The position numbers were made by a program, and so were the translations under genes. From a phage, in NCBI GenBank assembly GCA_017760785.1, contig GCA_017760785.1_4320.1: 46,166 nucleotides of DNA; one strand, given 5' to 3'. Below the pieces are notes generated by a model. It made no database searches and had not been told where the DNA came from. It worked only from the letters and a program-made list of their open reading frames with translations. Shown in pieces: positions 2,609 through 44,688 of the stretch; position 1 is the first letter of the stretch; every line of letters starts with the position of its first letter.

Positions 2609-3024
2609 AAATTACAGATAAAGAAGATTACATTGAGTTTTACCCTGGGCCAGTAAAGTCTTGCCCGAAAGAGGATGAAGAACAAATCTTTTGCTCTGAT
2701 TGGGTTAAGTATAACTACCCAGATATGGTATTTTTCCACTGCGTGAATGAGGGAAAGAAAACCATTGGTCAAGCAAGAAAAGACCAGGCTAAGGGTCTTC
2801 TCAAGGGCGTATCAGACTGCGTATTTATGATTCCAGAGAAATACCGTGGCAACTACTCATTTGGAGCCATAGAGCTAAAGAGGGCTGGGAAAACACAGGC
2901 CATCCCAGTTAGTGATGAACAGAAGTCCTTCCTCAAAAGCGTAAGAGAATCAGGTGGCTTCGCCGCAGTGGCCTACGGGCGGGAGGGTTTTTTATCTGCG
3001 TTTAAAGAAATGATTTCAAAATAG
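2605..3024 (+). CDS. VRR-NUC-like PD-(D/E)xK nuclease
   Basis: ATGA overlap with helicase stop; D...ELK motif; 139 aa. Confidence 0.55.
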   Translation: MKITDKEDYIEFYPGPVKSCPKEDEEQIFCSDWVKYNYPDMVFFHCVNEGKKTIGQARKDQAKGLLKGVSDCVFMIPEKYRGNYSFGAIELKRAGKTQAIPVSDEQKSFLKSVRESGGFAAVAYGREGFLSAFKEMISK

Positions 3025-3064
3025 CACTAATTGCTAAAGACGTTTCGGTGAGTTGGTGTATTAT
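3022..3064 (+). promoter_or_regulatory. motif-type promoter (TAGCACTAATTGCTA, 22 bp, TATTAT)
   Basis: palindrome plus spaced -10; CATCGAAACGA leader follows. Confidence 0.55.
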
Positions 3065-3102
3065 CTATTCATCGAAACGAAACGCACAAAGAGAGAAAGA
3101 AA

Positions 3103-3297
3103 ATGGCTACTATCTTTACTGGTAAAATCTACGAATCACGCAAAACTGGTTATGAATATGAATTAGCAATCACCGCTGAGGGTTATGTTCTTGACGATGG
3201 TGAAGGTTATGCATTCGAAGTTAGCCCAACATACAAAGACGACCTGGAAACTGTTAAAAACGCATATGGTGAAAAATTTGATGAGGTATCGGAATAA
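3103..3297 (+). CDS. hypothetical small protein
   Basis: ORF preceded by TAGCAC motif promoter and purine-rich SD. Confidence 0.5.
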   Translation: MATIFTGKIYESRKTGYEYELAITAEGYVLDDGEGYAFEVSPTYKDDLETVKNAYGEKFDEVSE

Positions 3298-3521
3298 TGG
3301 CAATTTTTACATTTGAAAATCAATGGGAAGTTTTCCAGACGATGGTTGTTGAGGAGCTCAGCAAAGCTAAGTATAACAAGGGGGATGCGTGGTATTTGGC
3401 TGCATCACTTGATATGAGTTTCGAGGAAGACTACCTGAACACCGATATTGAAACATGGCGTGACCGTATGGTTGCTGATATCGAAGAAATGAAGAAAGAT
3501 TGCCCGGAGGATTTCTTATGA
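3297..3521 (+). CDS. hypothetical small protein
   Basis: ORF; start overlaps previous stop. Confidence 0.45.
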   Translation: MAIFTFENQWEVFQTMVVEELSKAKYNKGDAWYLAASLDMSFEEDYLNTDIETWRDRMVADIEEMKKDCPEDFL

Positions 3522-3706
3522 TTGGCATCTGCGTAGAAACAAATGGCCACTTTACACTGCTTGAGGATTACGAAATTAATTTCGATTCATACTCAATAAC
3601 ATTGCTAAGCGACTTCGGGTGTTATTGGTTCATTTATGATCAAGGTGATGGTTACTACGGTTGCGTAGATGCAAACGGAAAAGAAGTTAGTTTTTTGGTT
3701 GAATAG
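3518..3706 (+). CDS. hypothetical small protein
   Basis: ATGA overlap with previous stop; ends in TAG of next motif. Confidence 0.4.
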   Translation: MIGICVETNGHFTLLEDYEINFDSYSITLLSDFGCYWFIYDQGDGYYGCVDANGKEVSFLVE

Positions 3707-3748
3707 CACCCTTATTTGTCATTGGTGCAGCATGTAAATTTATATAAT
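3704..3748 (+). promoter_or_regulatory. variant motif promoter (TAGCAC half-site, TATAAT)
   Basis: half motif plus -10 before 3763 ORF. Confidence 0.4.
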
Positions 3749-3762
3749 TAGGAGTATACAAC

Positions 3763-3891
3763 ATGAATAAGGCAAAAATTATCGCTGATATGCTTAAGAT
3801 TGCCGACCGTCTGAATAAAATCGTTGCGGAGATGGAGATCAGAAAGCAAGACATGATCACCAAATCCAAACGACAAACCTCCACTCTTTGA
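3763..3891 (+). CDS. hypothetical 42-aa protein
   Basis: hand-translated ORF below track cutoff; own motif promoter and AGGAG SD. Confidence 0.4.
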   Translation: MNKAKIIADMLKIADRLNKIVAEMEIRKQDMITKSKRQTSTL

Positions 3892-34265: not shown

Positions 34266-37200
34266 ATGGCACAGATGATCAAAACAAACATGGGGCTTTG
34301 TGATATGGCTGAAGAGATTAAGATTTATGGTGCCAAGGGTGGTAGCCAGAAGCAGCGTCAACCAGTGGAGCAGGAAGATAACCTAATTTCACTTAACAAG
34401 GTTAAGGTGTTGCTAGCTGTTGCTGATGGAGAGGTGGATCCAAACTTCTCAATGAAGGATTTATACCTTGCTGACGTTCCAGTGCAAAATCAGAATGGTA
34501 CCTACAACTACGAAGGTGTTCGCGCTGAGTTCCGTGCTGGTACGCAGTATCAGGACTACATCGCTGGCCTTGATGGTGCAAACTCAGAAATACAGGCTTC
34601 CAGAGAAATCACTAACGATACCCCGTATATCATCGCGGTTAATAATACTCAGCTATCAGCAATTCGTGTAAAGCTATATTGGCCTCGACTAGTTAAGCAA
34701 GAAAGCAATGGCGACCTGAACGGAACGACTTGCGAGTACGCAATTGACCTGTCTGTTAATGGCGGGGCATATCAGGAATACACTAGCGGAGTTGCTAACG
34801 GGAAGACAACTACAGGTTACGACCGCAGCATTCGCGTGAACCTTCCGGCAGAGTTCGATAGCGCCCTGGTTCGCATCCGTAAGATTACAGCAGATTCAAC
34901 AAGTAGCACCCTTGTTAACGGTATGCAGATTACAACCTATCAGGAAGTAATCGACGCTAAATTCCGCTACCCGCTTACGGCTCTTGTTTATGTTGAATTT
35001 GGCTCTGACCTTTTCCCTAACGGAATCCCGACAATCTCAATTAAAAAGAGATGGAAGTTGATTCAGGTACCGACAAACTACAATACGGAGACAAGAACTT
35101 ACAGCGGCACATGGAATGGCCTGTTCAAAATGGCGTGGTCAAACAACCCGGCATGGGTTCTTTATGACTTGGTTACAAACCGCCGTTACGGACTTGACCA
35201 GCGGGAACTAGGTGTAGAGATTGATAAATGGGGGCTGTACGAAGCTGCGCAATTCTGTGACCAGATGGTTCCTGATGGTAAGGGTGGAATGGAGCCGCGT
35301 TATCTTTGTGATATGGTAGTGCAAAACAAGGTTGAGGCTTACACGCTAATTCGTGATATCTGCTCAATATTCCGTGGCTTGACTTTCTATGATGGCGAAA
35401 AGATTGGTATCGTTGTTGATAAGCCACGCAATCCATCATACATCTTCACGAATGATAACATTGTAAACGGATTGTTCAGCCGCACCTTTGCCAGTGATAA
35501 GAGCCTTTACACCACAGCAAACGTTCAGTTTGATGATGTTGAGAACAACTATCAGCAGGATGTTGAGCCAGTTTTTGAACTCGAGGCTACTCGTCGATTT
35601 GGATTCAATCCTGTCGACCTCACGGCAATTGGATGTACGCGAAGAAGCGAAGCAAATAGACGCGGCAGATGGCTCCTGAAAACAAACCTGAGAAGCGAAA
35701 CTATTAGCTTCACTACCGGGTTAGAGGGCATGATTCCGATGATTGGCGAGGTTATTGCGGTCAATGATGCCGCATGGTCTAGCAACTATCAGCTAAACCT
35801 TTCCGGTCGTATTGAATCAGTTCAGGGATTGCAGGTTTTTACCCCATTTAAAGTTGACGCAGTGCCTGGTGACAGGATTCTTCTGAACAAGCCTGACGGA
35901 ATCCCAGAGGCGAGAACTATTGCAAGCGTTTCGGAAGATGGTAGAACTATCAACCTGAATACTGCATTTAGTTTTGTAGCTCAGCCTGATACTGTGTTCG
36001 CAATTGATAAGGATAATCTCGCGCTTCAACAGTATGTTGTGACAGGGATTCAAAAGGCAGATTCTGATGGTTCTGATTCATTTCAGTATACGATTACAGC
36101 GGTAGAGTATGACCCGAACAAGTATGACGAGATTGACTATGGCGTTAACATTGTTGATCGCCCGACTTCAATCGTTGAGCCTGACAGATTATCGCCACCA
36201 GAAAACCTAACCGTATCAAGCTATAGCAAGGTTGTTCAGGGCTTGTCAGTTGAGACGATGGTAATTGGTTGGGACAAGGCACCATACGCTAAAACCTACA
36301 ATGTTCAGTGGAGGAAAGAGAATGGTAACTGGATTAACGTACCCAGAACGGCAAGTACAGAGGTTGATATCGAAGGTATTTACGCAGGAATATATGACGT
36401 TAGGGTTCGCAGCGTATCAGATACTGAAAACGTGTCTGCCTGGTCTGGTGTTGTAACCAAAAGCCTAACCGGAAAAATTGGTAAGCCACCAAAGCTAAAG
36501 GTTATAACGGCAAGTGATGACGAAGTTTTCGGTATTAGAGTTAAGTGGGGCTTTGCTGATGGATCTGGTGATACTTCTTACACTGAGCTTCAGCAAGTAA
36601 CTGACAATGGTGACGGTACATACAACCCAGATAATGCTAGCCTATTAACTTTGGTCCCATACCCTCAGTATGAATACTGGCACGCGCCGATTCAACCAGG
36701 AAATGTTATCTGGTATCGCGCAAGGATTATAGATAGGATTGGTAATACATCTGATTGGACGGATTTCGTCAGAGGAATGAGTACTGATGATGCTCAGAAG
36801 ATCGCCGAATATATCAAGGTTGATATCGAGCAGTCTGAGGGCTTTAAATACCTAGAGCAGAATGCGATTAAGAAGAACCAGGAAATTCAGAATCAGGCAG
36901 AGTCAATTCTTGAGAACGCATTGGCAAATGATGGTGATGTTCGCAGGATGACAAAGGAGAATGGGAAGCGTAAGGCTGAATATGTTCAGGCAGTTAATCT
37001 TATAGCCGATGAAACTCAGGCGCGCGTAGAGGCTCTTACTCAGCTTAAAGCGCAGATTGATAATGAGATTGTTGGTCAGATTACAACAATTGAAACAGCG
37101 CTAGCTACAGAGACCGAGGCCAGAGCAACCGCAGATACGGCTTTGAGCGCAAGGCTTGGTCAGAACGAGGCAGCGCTAAACCAGAAGCTAGACGCATTCT

Positions 37201-37691
37201 CCAATGCAACATCCACTGGCGTGCAGTACGGAATTAGTCTTGGACTGAAATACAACGGCCGGACTTACTCTTCAGGTATGAGCATGGAGCTTGTTGGCAC
37301 TGGTGGCAATGTTCGCAGTCAGTTCATCTTTGACGCAAATAGATTCGCTATCAGTAACGGTATTGGTTCTGGTTCCGGTCAGTGGCAACTCCCCTTCGTT
37401 GTCGAGAACGGAGACGTAATCATCCAGAGCGCCGTGATCAAGGATGGATCAATCAGTAACGCGAAGATTGGTAACTTTATTCAGTCAAACAACTACGTTG
37501 CAGGAAGTACAGGCTGGAGGATTGATAAATCAGGAAGTGCAGAGCTAAGCAACGCCACTGTAAGGGGTAATCTTTACGCTAACAATGGTAACTTCGCTTT
37601 CAATGGAACCAATAACACGGTTCAGATTAACGGGAATGGAATCACGGTAAACCTACCAAATGGTGGTCGTGTTGTTGTAGGTACGTTCTAA
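34266..37691 (+). CDS. tail tip/host specificity protein, lambda gpJ-like
   Basis: 1141 aa; position after K and I. Confidence 0.85.
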   Translation: MAQMIKTNMGLCDMAEEIKIYGAKGGSQKQRQPVEQEDNLISLNKVKVLLAVADGEVDPNFSMKDLYLADVPVQNQNGTYNYEGVRAEFRAGTQYQDYIAGLDGANSEIQASREITNDTPYIIAVNNTQLSAIRVKLYWPRLVKQESNGDLNGTTCEYAIDLSVNGGAYQEYTSGVANGKTTTGYDRSIRVNLPAEFDSALVRIRKITADSTSSTLVNGMQITTYQEVIDAKFRYPLTALVYVEFGSDLFPNGIPTISIKKRWKLIQVPTNYNTETRTYSGTWNGLFKMAWSNNPAWVLYDLVTNRRYGLDQRELGVEIDKWGLYEAAQFCDQMVPDGKGGMEPRYLCDMVVQNKVEAYTLIRDICSIFRGLTFYDGEKIGIVVDKPRNPSYIFTNDNIVNGLFSRTFASDKSLYTTANVQFDDVENNYQQDVEPVFELEATRRFGFNPVDLTAIGCTRRSEANRRGRWLLKTNLRSETISFTTGLEGMIPMIGEVIAVNDAAWSSNYQLNLSGRIESVQGLQVFTPFKVDAVPGDRILLNKPDGIPEARTIASVSEDGRTINLNTAFSFVAQPDTVFAIDKDNLALQQYVVTGIQKADSDGSDSFQYTITAVEYDPNKYDEIDYGVNIVDRPTSIVEPDRLSPPENLTVSSYSKVVQGLSVETMVIGWDKAPYAKTYNVQWRKENGNWINVPRTASTEVDIEGIYAGIYDVRVRSVSDTENVSAWSGVVTKSLTGKIGKPPKLKVITASDDEVFGIRVKWGFADGSGDTSYTELQQVTDNGDGTYNPDNASLLTLVPYPQYEYWHAPIQPGNVIWYRARIIDRIGNTSDWTDFVRGMSTDDAQKIAEYIKVDIEQSEGFKYLEQNAIKKNQEIQNQAESILENALANDGDVRRMTKENGKRKAEYVQAVNLIADETQARVEALTQLKAQIDNEIVGQITTIETALATETEARATADTALSARLGQNEAALNQKLDAFSNATSTGVQYGISLGLKYNGRTYSSGMSMELVGTGGNVRSQFIFDANRFAISNGIGSGSGQWQLPFVVENGDVIIQSAVIKDGSISNAKIGNFIQSNNYVAGSTGWRIDKSGSAELSNATVRGNLYANNGNFAFNGTNNTVQINGNGITVNLPNGGRVVVGTF

Positions 37692-37722
37692 AATAAAAGC
37701 CCCGAAAGGGGCTTTATCTTTA
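37690..37722. terminator. bidirectional terminator between gpJ-like gene and minus-strand cassette
   Basis: GCCCC-GAAA-GGGGC flanked by A-run and T-run. Confidence 0.7.
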
Positions 37723-38679
37723 TTAGTACATGTTTGGTATGTATGGCAGCTGCATTGATATGTTTGTATTAAATGGAAATTGTGCGCCAGTCTGTGTTGA
37801 ATAGTTTCCAATTACACTACCAAGCTCCGACCTGACAGATCCATTAGACATTACGACACCTTTGTATCTAAGGTTGTTATATCCGCCAGTTACGCGAGTG
37901 TAAGCGCCAGTCCTAAGTATCGGGAAGTATCCATTACCTATCGACTGAAATGAGTTTGATATCTGAATGAATCCACCCAACACAAAAGGCCTTTTAACAG
38001 TAGAGAATACAACCTGGCCGGCCGGGTTTACTATTGTTATGCCTGGCCCGCCAACTGGTGCGGTGTTGTTGAATATAACCAAATCAACGACAACTGATGC
38101 CGAAACGTTATCTATGCCGCCGTATGTGTTATCCCTGCACAGAAGCCTGGTTCCATCAAACTCGAGCGTAACATTTGGATTACTCCATCTACCAAAAGGG
38201 ATTCCAGTTATTGGTAGTGTATAGCTGCCGTTTACAGTAACCCTTCCAACAAACTGTGCTGTCATCAGCCTTGAATTTGTCGTTATAGATACAAAGTCAG
38301 TTGAGTTAGCAACCAGTATACCTTGCCCAGTCGATGCTCCAGTTATCTCGAAGCAGTTGCCAGAGAAGTTTATCAGCCTTCCATTTGCGCCGTTAAAGTT
38401 GCTAATGTTTATTCTTCCCTGCGTATTTGATACCCTCTGGAATCCATTCATATAATAAACTTCCGGTATAACATCGAAATCGATAACTTCAACCGCCTTT
38501 ATTGGTAAAGCGAATGCTGTTGATCCATTAGTTTGGTTAAGCCCAAATGTCAACCCCCCAGATTCAGAAGCAAATTTTGTAGTTGGAATAGAACCGGTCA
38601 CATTAGGTGCTCTTAATCCAGCTGTTATATGCATTGCAGGTCTACCATCATTTAGATCGATTAAAATACCCTGAGGCAT
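37723..38679 (-). CDS. hypothetical Asn/Gly/Thr-rich protein, coupled to Cor-like gene
   Basis: 318 aa from ATG 38679 (TAATG overlap with upstream stop). Confidence 0.5.
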   Translation of the reverse strand: MPQGILIDLNDGRPAMHITAGLRAPNVTGSIPTTKFASESGGLTFGLNQTNGSTAFALPIKAVEVIDFDVIPEVYYMNGFQRVSNTQGRINISNFNGANGRLINFSGNCFEITGASTGQGILVANSTDFVSITTNSRLMTAQFVGRVTVNGSYTLPITGIPFGRWSNPNVTLEFDGTRLLCRDNTYGGIDNVSASVVVDLVIFNNTAPVGGPGITIVNPAGQVVFSTVKRPFVLGGFIQISNSFQSIGNGYFPILRTGAYTRVTGGYNNLRYKGVVMSNGSVRSELGSVIGNYSTQTGAQFPFNTNISMQLPYIPNMY

Positions 38680-38921
38680 TATTTCCACTCCTTAGAACCA
38701 TGGTCTTTAACTGAGCCACCGTAACCGCCACCAGTAGCCTTAATTCCATCGTAGCGCACGTCAACTTCTCCAGCCGGTACAACCACACCACTTTTCCATT
38801 TAGCCACGCACACGCCATTTGCTTGCGTTGCACACCAGCCATCCGTACGTGGACCAGAAGAGCAACCTACCATCATGATTGCTGCTGCGGCGATGATTGC
38901 TGATTTGATGAAGTTAGTCAT
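38679..38921 (-). CDS. small lipoprotein, Cor-like superinfection-exclusion candidate
   Basis: 80 aa from ATG 38921 (GAGGTA SD); signal peptide with MVGC lipobox-like site. Confidence 0.5.
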
Positions 38922-38960
38922 TTTATATACCTCATTAAGTTTTTTCGTTTCGATGGAGTA

Positions 38961-39003
38961 ATAGTACCGCATCCTTGCGGATTGTCTTTAGCAAACCGTG
39001 CTA
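38961..39003 (-). promoter_or_regulatory. motif-type promoter (TAGCACGGTTTGCTAA, 21 bp, TACTAT)
   Basis: minus strand; CCATCGAAACGAAAAA leader before Cor-like gene. Confidence 0.5.
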
Positions 39004-39677
39004 TTCGCAATAAATACAGCTCTTGCAAATCCACGAGGTGTAAGGCTGCGAATTACCTTTGTTTTCTTGCTCTTGCCTCCCAGCTTCTTGTATTGTTCAG
39101 AGAATCCATCGTCAACGACCACATTGATCGCCTCAGGCCAATTAAAGCCATTACCTGACCAGATGCATGTCTTCTTAGGATATGCGTCGCGAGGCTTTAT
39201 TAGGTCGCTAAAAAACGGGTGTAAATCATCTTCAGGCAAGTATCCACCAAACTCGTAAGGGTGGAGTGTATTGTCAGGTTTTCGCCAAAGAGATGAAAGC
39301 ACGCTAATTGGGTTCTCAATCATATAAGGTACGCCGTACTTCTCAGCCAGGTTAAAAGCAACCTTGCAAGTCTCTGCCGCCTCAATTTGAAAATTAGGAT
39401 TGGCCAGGCGCTTGCGATCAAAGTGTCTTGACCCACTCACGGCTAAATCAGTGCATGGGGGGAATGCCATGATAAAATCAGGCTTCACATCAAAATAAAA
39501 ATTGGCATCTATCCATGCGTTAACGTAGGTGATGTTCTCATGCTCAAATTTTGCATTTAAGTCACCATAGCTCCCGTGGTCAGACTCATCAAAGTTGAAG
39601 CAGTAGCAAGTATGTCCGGCTTCAGCCCAATCCTTTACAGCCAGACCAGAACCATCAAATAAAGACCAGATAACCAT
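38988..39677 (-). CDS. compact DNA C5-cytosine methyltransferase-like protein
   Basis: FDGSG, FPPCT, ENP motifs at C5-MTase-like spacing; ATG 39677 (alternative TTG 39710 lies inside the -10). Confidence 0.5.
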   Translation of the reverse strand: MVIWSLFDGSGLAVKDWAEAGHTCYCFNFDESDHGSYGDLNAKFEHENITYVNAWIDANFYFDVKPDFIMAFPPCTDLAVSGSRHFDRKRLANPNFQIEAAETCKVAFNLAEKYGVPYMIENPISVLSSLWRKPDNTLHPYEFGGYLPEDDLHPFFSDLIKPRDAYPKKTCIWSGNGFNWPEAINVVVDDGFSEQYKKLGGKSKKTKVIRSLTPRGFARAVFIANSTVC

Positions 39678-39711
39678 TTTTAAATCCTCTATCGTTGCTT
39701 GTGTGACCAAC

Positions 39712-39751
39712 TATACCAGGTTTTGCGGATTAGTTTTAGCTATTCGTGCCA
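39712..39751 (-). promoter_or_regulatory. variant motif promoter (TGGCACGAATAGCTAA, 20 bp, TGgTATAGT)
   Basis: minus strand; spacer shares AATCCGCAA with 38961-39003 promoter. Confidence 0.5.
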
Positions 39752-39789
39752 TTGCATACACGTAACCGTTGTAACTAGATGTATACAAT

Positions 39790-40110
39790 CTCATCCGCGG
39801 AAAATGATATACGCGATATTACGCCAATTTACGCATTGGTTACATTAAAATATCTATATATATCAACACTTTACTCTTATTATTATTATTATATATATTA
39901 CTGTGTATATCATGTAACTACTTCTATAGAGTGTTCCGGTTATAATTTTCTAATATGTACATTTATACAGTATCTAGCGACAAGCATACCAATGCACCAA
40001 CCCCCGCGAGAAATGGTATACACTATATACACACTGGTTACATTGAGCTATGCCTCGGATGGGATGCCAAAAAGCGTAACTAACGCCAATATCTACACAT
40101 AATTACAATG
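39790..40110. repeat. AT-rich divergent control element, copy 2
   Basis: shares ATATCTATATATA, (TAT)5 at 39878-39892, TATTACTGTGTATATCATGTAAC and GCCAAAAAGCGTAAC...CGCCAATAT blocks with copy 1. Confidence 0.7.
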
Positions 40111-40135
40111 ATTCACACGTAAGTCTGAATCAACG

Positions 40136-40179
40136 ATTGGATAAACCAATTGGACTGTCTATGGTGCTGAATATATAGT
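40136..40179 (+). promoter_or_regulatory. alternative palindrome ATTGGATAAACCAAT upstream of TATAGT
   Basis: perfect 5-N5-5 inverted repeat at same distance from -10 as TAGCA palindromes. Confidence 0.45.
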
Positions 40180-40218
40180 TAACCCATCGAAAGCAAACAA
40201 CCACAGAGAGATACAGAA

Positions 40219-41548: not shown

Positions 41549-42013
41549 ATGAACAAAGATTGCTGGCAGACTCCTTTAGAGTTATTCAAACAACTAGATG
41601 ATAAATACAACTTCGAGGTTGACGTATGCGCCAGCCAAGAAAACGCGCTTTGTGAATGTTTTTGGGCTGTAGATGATGACTGCCTGCAACAGGATTGGGG
41701 AGAAGGCAAAGGTTTTGTCTGGTGTAATCCACCATATAGCAATCCATTGCCATTTGTCGAAAAGTGCCAACAATACGGCTATGCAGTCATGCTGTTGAAT
41801 CAGGACACATCAACAAAATGGGCCAAGATAGTATTTGAAAAAGCGTCAAATGTTATACTTTTATCAGACAGGGTTAGGTTTATAAATCCAGTAACACTGG
41901 AGGTTGGTAAGTCAAATCCTAAATGCCAGATGATTGTGGTTTTCGACAAGAGTAGTAATTCTGGTGTTGATATAAGATGGTGCCCAATAAAAGAAATTCA
42001 TAAGCACATCTAA
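41549..42013 (+). CDS. dam: DNA N6-adenine methyltransferase (Dam-like)
   Basis: NPPY motif and N-terminal WQTP; 154 aa. Confidence 0.8.
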   Translation: MNKDCWQTPLELFKQLDDKYNFEVDVCASQENALCECFWAVDDDCLQQDWGEGKGFVWCNPPYSNPLPFVEKCQQYGYAVMLLNQDTSTKWAKIVFEKASNVILLSDRVRFINPVTLEVGKSNPKCQMIVVFDKSSNSGVDIRWCPIKEIHKHI

Positions 42014-44663: not shown

Positions 44664-44688
44664 AATGTAAACCCCATATTTTGATTTA

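Follow-up and report, generated by a model that had tools for sequence, protein, structure and literature searches.

The closest described counterparts of the locus analyzed here are the rtp44-rtp45 locus of phage Rtp and the LptD-type receptor-binding protein (RBP) loci of the BASEL phages Bas01, Bas02 and Bas18 (PMC8594841, PMC12685063). Mutations in lptD confer resistance to phages that carry the LptD-type RBP module (PMC8594841), and the RBP has been seen in LptDE by cryo-EM (PMC12685063). The lipoprotein Rtp45 attaches to LptDE from the periplasm and keeps the RBP from binding, the solved partner of its family being LptDE and not FhuA; a Cys30-Cys38 disulfide has also been described for the Rtp45-type lipoprotein (PMC12685063). 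The same logic, in which an RBP for an outer-membrane protein is combined with a small periplasm-side lipoprotein that blocks the same receptor, is found in the Cor systems of T1, phi80 and N15 and in the pb5-Llp system of T5, but the receptor of these systems is FhuA rather than LptD. The blocking mechanisms differ as well, with steric displacement of LptD loop 4 for Rtp45 and long-range allostery for Llp and FhuA (PMC12685063).

Two further systems are relevant to this locus. The Dcm protein of phage K42 raises the 5mC content of DNA as measured by LC-MS, whereas a catalytic-residue mutant does not, and the enzyme is inactivated by joint mutation of C82, E128, K175 and K176 (bioRxiv 10.1101/2023.08.16.553469). 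A 21-nt direct repeat, aaATAGCACnnnTTGnTAAAA, was already reported for TLS, T1 and Rtp, and in TLS it is located 76 nt before the ATG (PMC11447400).

Organization of the locus

The window, i.e. the whole 46,166-nt stretch of phage DNA analyzed in this work (GCA_017760785.1), is nearest overall to the genome of DTL (MG050172), with ~87% identity. Its RBP and lipoprotein genes follow gpJ in the same order and orientation as in the rtp44-rtp45 and BASEL loci. The window and the rtp44-rtp45 locus both have a terminator after J and a stop/start overlap from the lipoprotein gene to the RBP gene, and they have both protein families, DUF6453 and PF24052, in common. The closest individual module is ORF51/ORF52 of DTL, whose RBP and lipoprotein are 93% and 90% identical to those of the window; unlike the window, DTL contains neither a Dcm-like nor a Dam gene. 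The DTL paper reports no receptor or methylation results. We conclude that the cassette very probably serves an Rtp-like coliphage (Drexlerviridae, Braunvirinae) in host recognition and exclusion, and that a methyltransferase cassette has been inserted at the head of this module. The finding is genuine but unremarkable, because the three genes are of already understood kinds (a predicted LptD-binding tail-tip protein, a predicted LptD-blocking lipoprotein and a short C5 methyltransferase), and it leaves current understanding unchanged.

The initial annotation had placed the three genes between a terminator after gpJ and an AT-rich element. The ORF list and a hairpin scan confirmed that they are bracketed by the terminator at 37696-37715 and an AT-rich spacer. 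The features of the locus, together with the second methyltransferase gene of the window, are:

34266..37691, plus strand: J-like central tail-tip protein, 1141-aa ORF; its equivalents in JeanPiccard, Rtp and DTL carry the annotation J-like tail tip or tail protein
37696..37715, both strands: two-way intrinsic terminator separating the convergent J and RBP genes, a hairpin with T-runs
37723..38679, minus strand: receptor-binding protein (Rtp44 / RBP-Oeko family, Pfam DUF6453), 318 aa, predicted LptD binder (PF20051, 9rpt_C)
38679..38921, minus strand: predicted superinfection-exclusion lipoprotein (Rtp45 family), 80 aa, translationally coupled to the RBP gene (PF24052, 9rps_D)
38961..39005, minus strand: candidate promoter with the repeat at 38984-39005 (22-nt pattern, no mismatch), a spacer with AATCCGCAA and the -10-like TACTAT at 38961-38966
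38988..39677, minus strand: short phage Dcm-like DNA cytosine-C5 methyltransferase, 229 aa, accessory cassette (motifs, PHROG 757, fold)
39710..39753, minus strand: candidate promoter upstream of the methylase gene, with the repeat at 39732-39753, a spacer with AATCCGCAA and the extended -10-like TGgTATAGT at 39710-39718
41549..42013, plus strand: small phage Dam (N6-adenine), accessory orphan methyltransferase (PF05869, NPPY)

The terminator consists of an 8-bp stem with 5 GC pairs, AAAGCCCC-GAAA-GGGGCTTT, with T-runs on either strand, and its folding energies are -17.7 and -18.3 kcal/mol (z -4.8 and -4.3). The ATG of the methylase gene follows GAGGA, the ATG of the lipoprotein gene follows GAGG, and GGAG is found upstream of the RBP gene. 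The called starts of the three ORFs are favored over longer TTG, GTG or ATG options by the N-termini of homologues (MTNF..., MPQGI/MAQGI..., MVIWSLFDGSG). The TAATG overlap pointed out in the initial annotation is present, the ATG of the RBP gene and the TAA stop of the lipoprotein gene having one base in common; this overlap would couple RBP synthesis to lipoprotein synthesis. None of the three proteins was assigned to a family by a search of NCBIfam.

Receptor-binding protein

The 318-aa protein belongs to the Pfam family PF20051 (DUF6453), with 459 bits (E 9e-138, cut-off 25) and residues 4-295 aligned to positions 1-291 of the 291-position profile. It also matches, over residues 2-318, the RBP of Oekolampad in its complex with LptDE (PDB 9rpt_C, E 8.6e-68). 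The LptD-specific RBP family is delimited by >30% identity at >99% coverage (bioRxiv 10.64898/2026.04.02.716166), and these thresholds are exceeded by the 318-aa protein, which is 48% identical to Rtp44 and 46% to Bas02 at full coverage. Its gene occupies the location expected of the family, directly downstream of gpJ and beside the gene for the cognate exclusion lipoprotein. Within the family, the protein falls into the DTL-type branch, at only about 48% identity to the genetically tested Rtp44/Bas01 type.

The protein is rich in Gly (12.3%), Asn (9.7%) and Thr (9.1%), as had been noticed from its translation. Its proposed role as an accessory of the lipoprotein did not hold; the PF20051 and 9RPT matches and the published work on their relatives (PMC8594841; PMC12685063) identify it as an RBP of the virion tail tip, and we infer from its sequence that it binds LptD. 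In the proposed mechanism, the RBP would be shown at the end of the J tail tip, the distal end of which is thought to be the RBP-carrying structure. It would bind the extracellular face of LptD, the essential LPS translocon, and by homology would enter the LptD lumen, an insertion that would commit the phage to infection. The locus predicts the terminal receptor (LptD) from sequence, which is useful for phage choice or engineering and for phage-resistant production strains.

Exclusion lipoprotein

The 80-aa protein is a member of PF24052 (130 bits, E 3e-38, cut-off 27) and matches the structure of Rtp45 bound to LptDE (PDB 9rps_D, E 2e-38). Its signal peptide ends with MVG directly before Cys20, and the lipobox Cys20 as well as the Cys30/Cys38 pair are invariant in four orthologues. 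The lipoprotein gene of DTL is annotated too short (198 bp).

The initial annotation had called this protein a Cor-like exclusion lipoprotein. Its description as a small lipoprotein, its predicted exclusion role and its position equivalent to that of T1 cor stand, whereas the assignment to the Cor family does not, given its membership in PF24052 and its 86% identity to Rtp45, the structure of which was solved on LptDE. It is hardly credible that the protein is a Cor-type FhuA blocker as in T1, phi80 and N15, with the 318-aa protein serving as an accessory of the exclusion system. The resemblance to T1 cor (L006:29623-29850) extends to size, lipobox, leftward orientation and place after the tail genes, and T1 Cor gives a sub-threshold match to PF24052 (17.7 bits, cut-off 27), but the BLASTP alignment of T1 Cor to the lipoprotein has 14/40 identities and covers residues 6-45 only, i.e. 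the signal peptide and lipobox. Moreover, the Cor cassette is accompanied by two further genes downstream of J and goes together with FhuA usage (PMC13164509), and the window is devoid of those genes: T1 has ST32 and ST31 between J and cor, where the window has instead the DUF6453 RBP, whose entire length is homologous to an LptD-binding RBP of solved structure. The Cor and pb5-Llp proteins are in general unrelated or barely related to the proteins of the window. As a caution for annotation, a lipoprotein encoded after the tail genes is not automatically a Cor protein directed at FhuA.

We favor the assignment of the 80-aa protein as an Rtp45-type superinfection-exclusion lipoprotein, with its exclusion role predicted by homology. 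After export and lipidation at Cys20, the protein would be targeted to the outer membrane on its inner face, where it would bind LptDE from the periplasm and push extracellular loop 4 of LptD outwards. RBP docking would be blocked because of this outward movement of the loop. Such a lipoprotein would shield infected cells from superinfection and spare the progeny from loss on cell debris.

Short cytosine methyltransferase

The gene at the head of the locus was initially described as encoding a C5-cytosine methyltransferase-type protein of unusually small size, a description supported by its motifs, its match to PHROG 757 (E 1e-82) and its fold. All three motifs are found: FDGSG at residues 7-11, FPPCT at 72-76 and ENP at 121-123. 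Residues F7, G9, S10, G11, P73, P74, C75, E121, N122 and P123 are invariant in 55 homologues, and in a set of 75 diverse representatives C75 is invariant, with E121 and N122 conserved in at least 90%. The protein has matches in 1571 phage records and in 1208 representative clusters. It aligns end to end with the Dcm protein of KarlJaspers (236 aa), at 60% identity over 233 columns, and K42 is a 95.4%-identical strain of KarlJaspers; C75, E121, K168 and K169 of the 229-aa protein align to C82, E128, K175 and K176 of K42 Dcm. The K42/KarlJaspers enzyme, the trigger of retron Ec86 (bioRxiv 10.1101/2023.08.16.553469), is a member of the same short family, but its genomic place is different: the dcm gene of KarlJaspers lies in an early-region gene cluster, whereas the methylase gene of the window is at the head of the RBP locus. 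Korf 2019 contains nothing on a cytosine methylase.

The relationship to characterized C5 methyltransferases is remote in sequence. The protein scores 14.1 bits with PF00145, below the gathering score of 22 and over residues 3-90 only, while this family is matched at E<=0.1 by 28 of the 55 homologues (best 1.3e-6). A phmmer search with the 229-aa protein against PDB gave nothing up to E 10, and profiles of the 55 and 75 homologues retrieved from PDB only DNMT2 (E 0.27) and chance matches. Comparison with E. coli K-12 Dcm by hhalign gave probabilities of 1.1% and 0.2%, with the alignment limited to the motif IV-VI stretch. Since sequence searches gave no significant C5-methyltransferase link, the protein was placed by fold comparison. 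This comparison revealed the C5-methyltransferase catalytic-domain fold, with DNMT3 as the best structural match. A separate target-recognition (small) domain between motifs VIII and IX was not found, the distance from ENP to RSLTPRG being ~88 residues. In contrast to canonical C5 methyltransferases of 291-472 aa (M.HhaI, M.HaeIII, the DNMT3A/3B catalytic domain, E. coli Dcm), the protein lacks such a domain and has PCT rather than PCQ.

A degenerate or repurposed fold, whether inactive, acting on RNA like Dnmt2, or carrying out a non-methyl reaction like the C5-carboxymethyltransferases, appears very unlikely. This explanation would accommodate a length 60-100 residues below that of solved C5-methyltransferase catalytic domains (291-348 aa), the PCT in place of PCQ, the absence of recognizable motifs VIII and X, the Pfam score under the cut-off, and DNMT2 as the sole PDB profile match from the C5-methyltransferase family. 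It is opposed by three observations: i) thousands of homologues retain the SAM-binding motif, the catalytic Cys and the ENx Glu; ii) K42 Dcm, the strain-level equivalent of the 60%-identical KarlJaspers Dcm, forms 5mC in DNA; and iii) DNMT3, the best structural match, is itself active on DNA although it has PCN and only a small recognition region. With conserved catalytic residues and a family member at this level of identity making 5mC (bioRxiv 10.1101/2023.08.16.553469), the repurposing put forward in the initial annotation is unnecessary. We prefer to read the protein as a presumably active DNA cytosine-C5 methyltransferase that depends on SAM and has only a very small region for target recognition.

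The second methyltransferase of the window, encoded at 41549-42013, matches the Pfam Dam family PF05869 (E 7e-39) and contains NPPY. Its gene is also present in JeanPiccard and is absent from Rtp as well as from DTL. The initial proposal that the phage carries two orphan methyltransferases, one of the C5-cytosine type and one Dam, agrees with these predicted functions.

Target site of the methyltransferase

The 229-aa enzyme would modify phage DNA and also host DNA, and its site is probably CCWGG or one overlapping it. In the case of K42, altering CCTGG in the stem-loop of Ec86 msDNA abolishes the defence, and a Dcm gene is present in 34/35 Ec86-sensitive phages, which suggests a target common across the family (bioRxiv 10.1101/2023.08.16.553469). 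The CCWGG assignment for K42 comes from one mutated msDNA site in a dcm+ host, not from a methylome (bioRxiv 10.1101/2023.08.16.553469).

With this evidence for CCWGG, we regard it as somewhat unlikely that the enzyme is active on a different target, with its own or a relaxed specificity, and is Dcm-like in name only. Several observations would nonetheless fit such an enzyme. E. coli Dcm has no significant sequence relation to the 229-aa methylase, and the recognition regions of the two proteins are of entirely different size. The K42 experiments found little 5mC in msDNA when the phage enzyme was missing, even though the host was dcm+ MG1655 (bioRxiv 10.1101/2023.08.16.553469), which is unexpected if the phage and host enzymes had the same target and access. 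Frequencies of CCWGG and other sites were compared between three methylase-carrying genomes and three that lack the gene; they do not discriminate between the possibilities, because CCWGG is avoided in neither group.

Cytosine methylation would blunt restriction at the cost of sensing by retron Ec86. In the BASEL work, methyltransferase genes were not linked to restriction resistance in any simple way (PMC8594841). The methylase assignment predicts that the phage would be sensed by this retron. Retron Ec86 is native to BL21(DE3).

Direct repeats and accessory cassettes

Both candidate promoters contain a copy of the Drexlerviridae direct repeat, matching its consensus, its orientation with transcription and its distance of ~76 nt before the start codon. 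The distance from repeat to ATG is 84 nt for the copy at 39005-38984 and 76 nt for the copy at 39753-39732. The window has 11 copies of the repeat against 0.04 expected, compared with 12 in T1 and 7 in KarlJaspers. What the present analysis adds is the combination of the repeat with a -10-like hexamer at a fixed distance and a conserved leader, which we interpret as a putative promoter. A scan with the sigma-70 consensus called neither of the two repeat-associated sites, and its 8 promoter-like sites compare with 7.3 in shuffled sequence.

The initial annotation had viewed the promoters of the methylase and lipoprotein genes as duplicates of each other. The two upstream regions do have sequence in common, but this is not a private duplication, as they represent two of the 11 copies of a family-wide repeat. 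The 9-mer AATCCGCAA, located at 38975-38983 and 39723-39731 on the minus strand and at one further site in the window, forms part of a 31-nt direct repeat whose copies at the two upstream sites are 77% identical, and it is the only feature specific to that pair. A hairpin, CCGCAAGGATGCGG (38967-38980), was considered as a possible terminator or operator separating the methylase gene from the lipoprotein gene and was rejected, since the transcribed strand lacks a T-run, the folding z is only -1.0 and the hairpin is not conserved in JeanPiccard.

Comparison of the slot at the head of the RBP locus between phages revealed a mosaic architecture, in which repeat copies bracket accessory cassettes. 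At this slot, Rtp, DTL and ETEP102 carry a single repeat copy and lack the methylase gene, the window and JeanPiccard have the methylase gene between two repeat copies, and CEB_EC3a has a different gene between two repeat copies at the same slot. The element at 38961-39005 shares sequence with the final codons and stop of the methylase gene, and in alignments it corresponds to the single copy that precedes rtp45 in Rtp and to that in DTL. The methylase gene would have arrived as a promoter-plus-gene unit recombined between two direct-repeat promoter copies.

Two wider generalizations, both of which we consider fairly unlikely, are that the ~230-aa Dcm-like proteins form a distinct minimal class of C5 methyltransferases devoid of the canonical recognition domain and, separately, that the 21-22-nt direct repeats of T1-like phages double as recombination sites, by which promoter-plus-gene units with dcm, dam or an Ant/KilA-like gene would be shuttled in and out of fixed slots such as the head of the RBP locus. 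The Dcm-like proteins might act as a DNMT3-like dimer, perhaps with a specificity unlike that of host Dcm. The repeat-bounded cassettes offer a concrete and testable picture of accessory-gene movement among T1-like phages. Another copy of the direct repeat begins on the last base of the Dam stop codon, at position 42013.

Organization of the leftward cassette

By sequence comparison, the window comes closest to the Rtp-like phages of the Drexlerviridae (subfamily Braunvirinae); a 25-kb query found its best matches in DTL, CEB_EC3a and JeanPiccard (~87% identity across 75-79%), and no record identical to it was found in the phage collection searched. The three leftward ORFs of the initial annotation were recovered at the coordinates proposed for them, each with a plausible ribosome-binding site and with a start that fits the orthologue N-termini, which the longer alternatives do not.

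Leftward cassette and adjoining terminator
37723-38679, -, 318-aa protein, putative receptor-binding protein (RBP)
38679-38921, -, 80-aa protein, putative Rtp45-type exclusion lipoprotein
38988-39677, -, 229-aa protein, predicted short C5-methyltransferase
37696-37715, both strands, bidirectional terminator between the convergent J (tail-tip protein) and 318-aa genes: 8-bp stem (5 GC pairs), T-runs on each strand

The reported TAATG overlap is also present, one base being common to the TAA stop of the lipoprotein gene and the ATG of the 318-aa protein, and the terminator stem has folding z-scores of -4.8 and -4.3. The original observation on this cassette is thus confirmed, the interpretations of two of its three genes require correction, and each of its components is of a kind described before, structures having been solved for two of them. 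Four records labelled as Campylobacter or Pseudomonas phages, MG065688 (A110b), MG065690, MG065682 and PP134917, have the sequences of Rtp-like or rV5-like coliphages and are probably mislabelled, or contaminants from isolation; 'Campylobacter phage A110b' has 85.6% identity to the lipoprotein-methylase region.

Receptor-binding protein and exclusion lipoprotein

Homology identifies the 318-aa protein as a probable RBP, which by the same argument would bind LptD. A full-length match to Pfam DUF6453 scores 459 bits, and residues 2-318 match chain C of PDB 9RPT/9RPW/9RQI (E 8.6e-68), the Oekolampad RBP seen by cryo-EM inside the lumen of open-state LptDE (PMC12685063). Its identity is 93% to DTL ORF51, 48% to Rtp44, the RBP of Rtp, and 46% to a protein of Bas02. 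In the BASEL study, spontaneous lptD deletions block every phage with this type of RBP locus, and LptD was predicted to be the receptor of Rtp (PMC8594841). A 2026 preprint defines the LptD-specific RBP family by >30% identity and >99% coverage (bioRxiv 10.64898/2026.04.02.716166), bounds within which the 318-aa protein falls. For GpJ (34266-37691 in the window), a preprint of 2026 describes C-terminal domains that can themselves impose a second receptor requirement, as with NupG in Bas01. Public annotation of these proteins is misleading, the RBP of Rtp being labelled 'membrane protein' and PHROG 1265 placing the Rtp-type RBP under 'moron/auxiliary'.

The 80-aa protein had been likened to Cor, the outer-membrane exclusion protein of T1-like and lambdoid phages. 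The analogy in role and location holds, and the family and receptor do not: its sequence assigns it to the Rtp45-type exclusion lipoproteins. It scores 130 bits against PF24052 and matches Rtp45 itself (PDB 9RPS chain D) with E 2e-38. Its identity is 86% with Rtp45 and 90% with the counterpart in DTL, and all the orthologues aligned retain Cys20 of the lipobox as well as the Cys30/Cys38 pair. T1 Cor is encoded at the equivalent genomic position, but it is sub-threshold on PF24052 and its alignment with the 80-aa protein is limited to a 40-residue stretch at the signal peptide and lipobox (14/40 identical), and Cor identity was rejected. The Cor cassette is linked to FhuA use and to two further genes (PMC13164509), both of which are absent from this locus in the window. 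In the solved complex, Rtp45 is bound to LptDE from the periplasm, with LptE and LptM on either side of it, and its hairpin extends up the LptD lumen and shifts extracellular loop 4 as much as 20 Å, so that RBP binding is excluded (PMC12685063). The DTL lipoprotein gene (ORF 52; L003 4180-4422) is annotated as 198 bp, and an upstream start would give a full 80-aa orthologue including the signal peptide.

A short C5-methyltransferase

The 229-aa protein is assigned as a short phage C5-methyltransferase, the predicted fold being decisive. The FDGSG, FPPCT and ENP motifs on which the suggestion was first based are present and conserved among its homologues, which number 3947 at E<=1e-3 in a large protein collection; 1208 representative clusters also match, as do 1571 records of phages whose hosts include Escherichia, Klebsiella and Salmonella. 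It matches PHROG 757 "DNA methyltransferase" with E 1e-82 and shares 91-92% identity with BASEL genes that carry the annotation Dcm-like C5 cytosine methyltransferase. Its score against PF00145 is 14.1 bits, below the cut-off of 22 (28 of 55 homologues match this profile at E<=0.1), and nothing significant was found by sequence search of solved structures or by comparison with E. coli Dcm. AlphaFold gave a model of high confidence (pLDDT 89.8, pTM 0.88), and the methyltransferase fold that structure prediction was proposed to look for was found, the top Foldseek matches being the DNMT3A/3B catalytic domains (E 4e-6, probability 1.0). These are 60-100 residues longer than the 229-aa protein, which has no separate recognition domain. 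PCT is a variant of the PCQ motif; in DNMT3 the sequence is PCN and then DLS, similar to PCTDLA of the 229-aa protein.

The closest functional precedent comes from K42, a strain of KarlJaspers, in which escape from the retron Ec86 was mapped to a 711-bp dcm gene; expression of K42 Dcm increased 5mC in msDNA by LC-MS, a C82A/E128A/K175A/K176A mutant did not raise it, and mutation of CCTGG in Ec86 msDNA abolished defence (bioRxiv 10.1101/2023.08.16.553469). KarlJaspers Dcm (L005:40087-40797) is 60% identical to the 229-aa protein end to end, and its C82, E128, K175 and K176 align with C75, E121, K168 and K169. Given this precedent and the aligned catalytic residues, methyltransferase activity is likely, and CCWGG is a reasonable but unproven target.

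Repeat elements and possible exchange of cassette genes

The methylase and lipoprotein genes had been described as having duplicated motif promoters of their own. The shared motif is real: the 9-mer AATCCGCAA lies upstream of both genes within a 31-nt direct repeat (77% identity). The pair is not private, since the sequence common to both upstream regions is part of a 22-nt element, AATAGCAC(G/T)AATTGCTAAAGAC, with 11 copies in the window (0.04 expected), 12 in T1 and 7 in KarlJaspers. Nor are the putative promoters new, because the element matches the 21-nt direct repeat described ~76 nt upstream of start codons in TLS, and also in T1 and Rtp (PMC11447400).

Element copies (5' ends) and a comparison insert
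3020, 7046, 14876, 15753, 16529, 42013, 44687, +, 22-nt element
11095, 12494, 39005, 39753, -, 22-nt element
CEB_EC3a (L008) 2960-3790, 215-aa DNA-binding / anti-repressor-like gene, bounded by two direct-repeat copies

Downstream of every copy except that at 44687 come a spacer of 14-19 nt, a -10-like hexamer (often with an extended TGn), the leader TTACC(C)CATCGAAACGA, which is conserved, and finally a ribosome-binding site and ATG. Two features set the methylase/lipoprotein pair apart, the 9-mer, identical in both, that directly follows the element and the surrounding architecture. Rtp, DTL and ETEP102 lack the methylase and have a single copy directly 5' of the lipoprotein gene; two copies flank the methylase gene in the window and in JeanPiccard. 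The downstream copy starts exactly at the last conserved methylase codon, so that the C-terminal NSTVC and the stop codon are encoded by repeat DNA. The same slot in CEB_EC3a holds the unrelated DNA-binding protein gene, with its stop codon within the second copy; a similar insert is apparently present in CY1 and vB_Ec-G8, judged by annotation. The KarlJaspers dcm stop codon also lies within a repeat copy.

The Dam assignment at 41549-42013 proved solid (PF05869, E 7e-39). This accessory gene, whose stop codon adjoins a direct-repeat copy, is inserted between those for exonuclease VIII and an Erf-type recombinase (comparison region Rtp L011 28662-30351); the window and JeanPiccard carry it, and neither methyltransferase occurs in Rtp or DTL. 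In the simplest reading, recombination between repeat copies would swap promoter-plus-gene units. The RBP and lipoprotein are 93% and 90% identical to those of DTL and the methylase 91-92% to those of Bas01/Bas02, whose RBPs are only 46% identical to that of the window; the present cassette is recombinant, assembled from known parts.

Site frequencies and the AT-rich region

GATC is strongly depleted in the window (74 observed, 214 expected, z -10). The depletion is equal in Braunvirinae with Dam (window, JeanPiccard) and without it (DTL, Rtp), and GATC avoidance is therefore a lineage trait that the phage Dam does not explain; KarlJaspers is undepleted and T1 only mildly depleted. GGWCC and GGNCC are rare in all six Drexlerviridae genomes, the window and five others (z about -3 to -6), RCCGGY is nearly missing from T1, with a single site against 42 expected, and from KarlJaspers, with none against 32, and CCWGG is over-represented in KarlJaspers (125 vs 71, z +6.8). 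The AT-rich divergent intergenic region 39754-40218, with (ATA)n runs and repeated GCGTAA(C) units, is near-identical across Rtp, DTL and JeanPiccard; a Tyr/Ile-rich 107-aa ORF within it (39779-40102) looks spurious.
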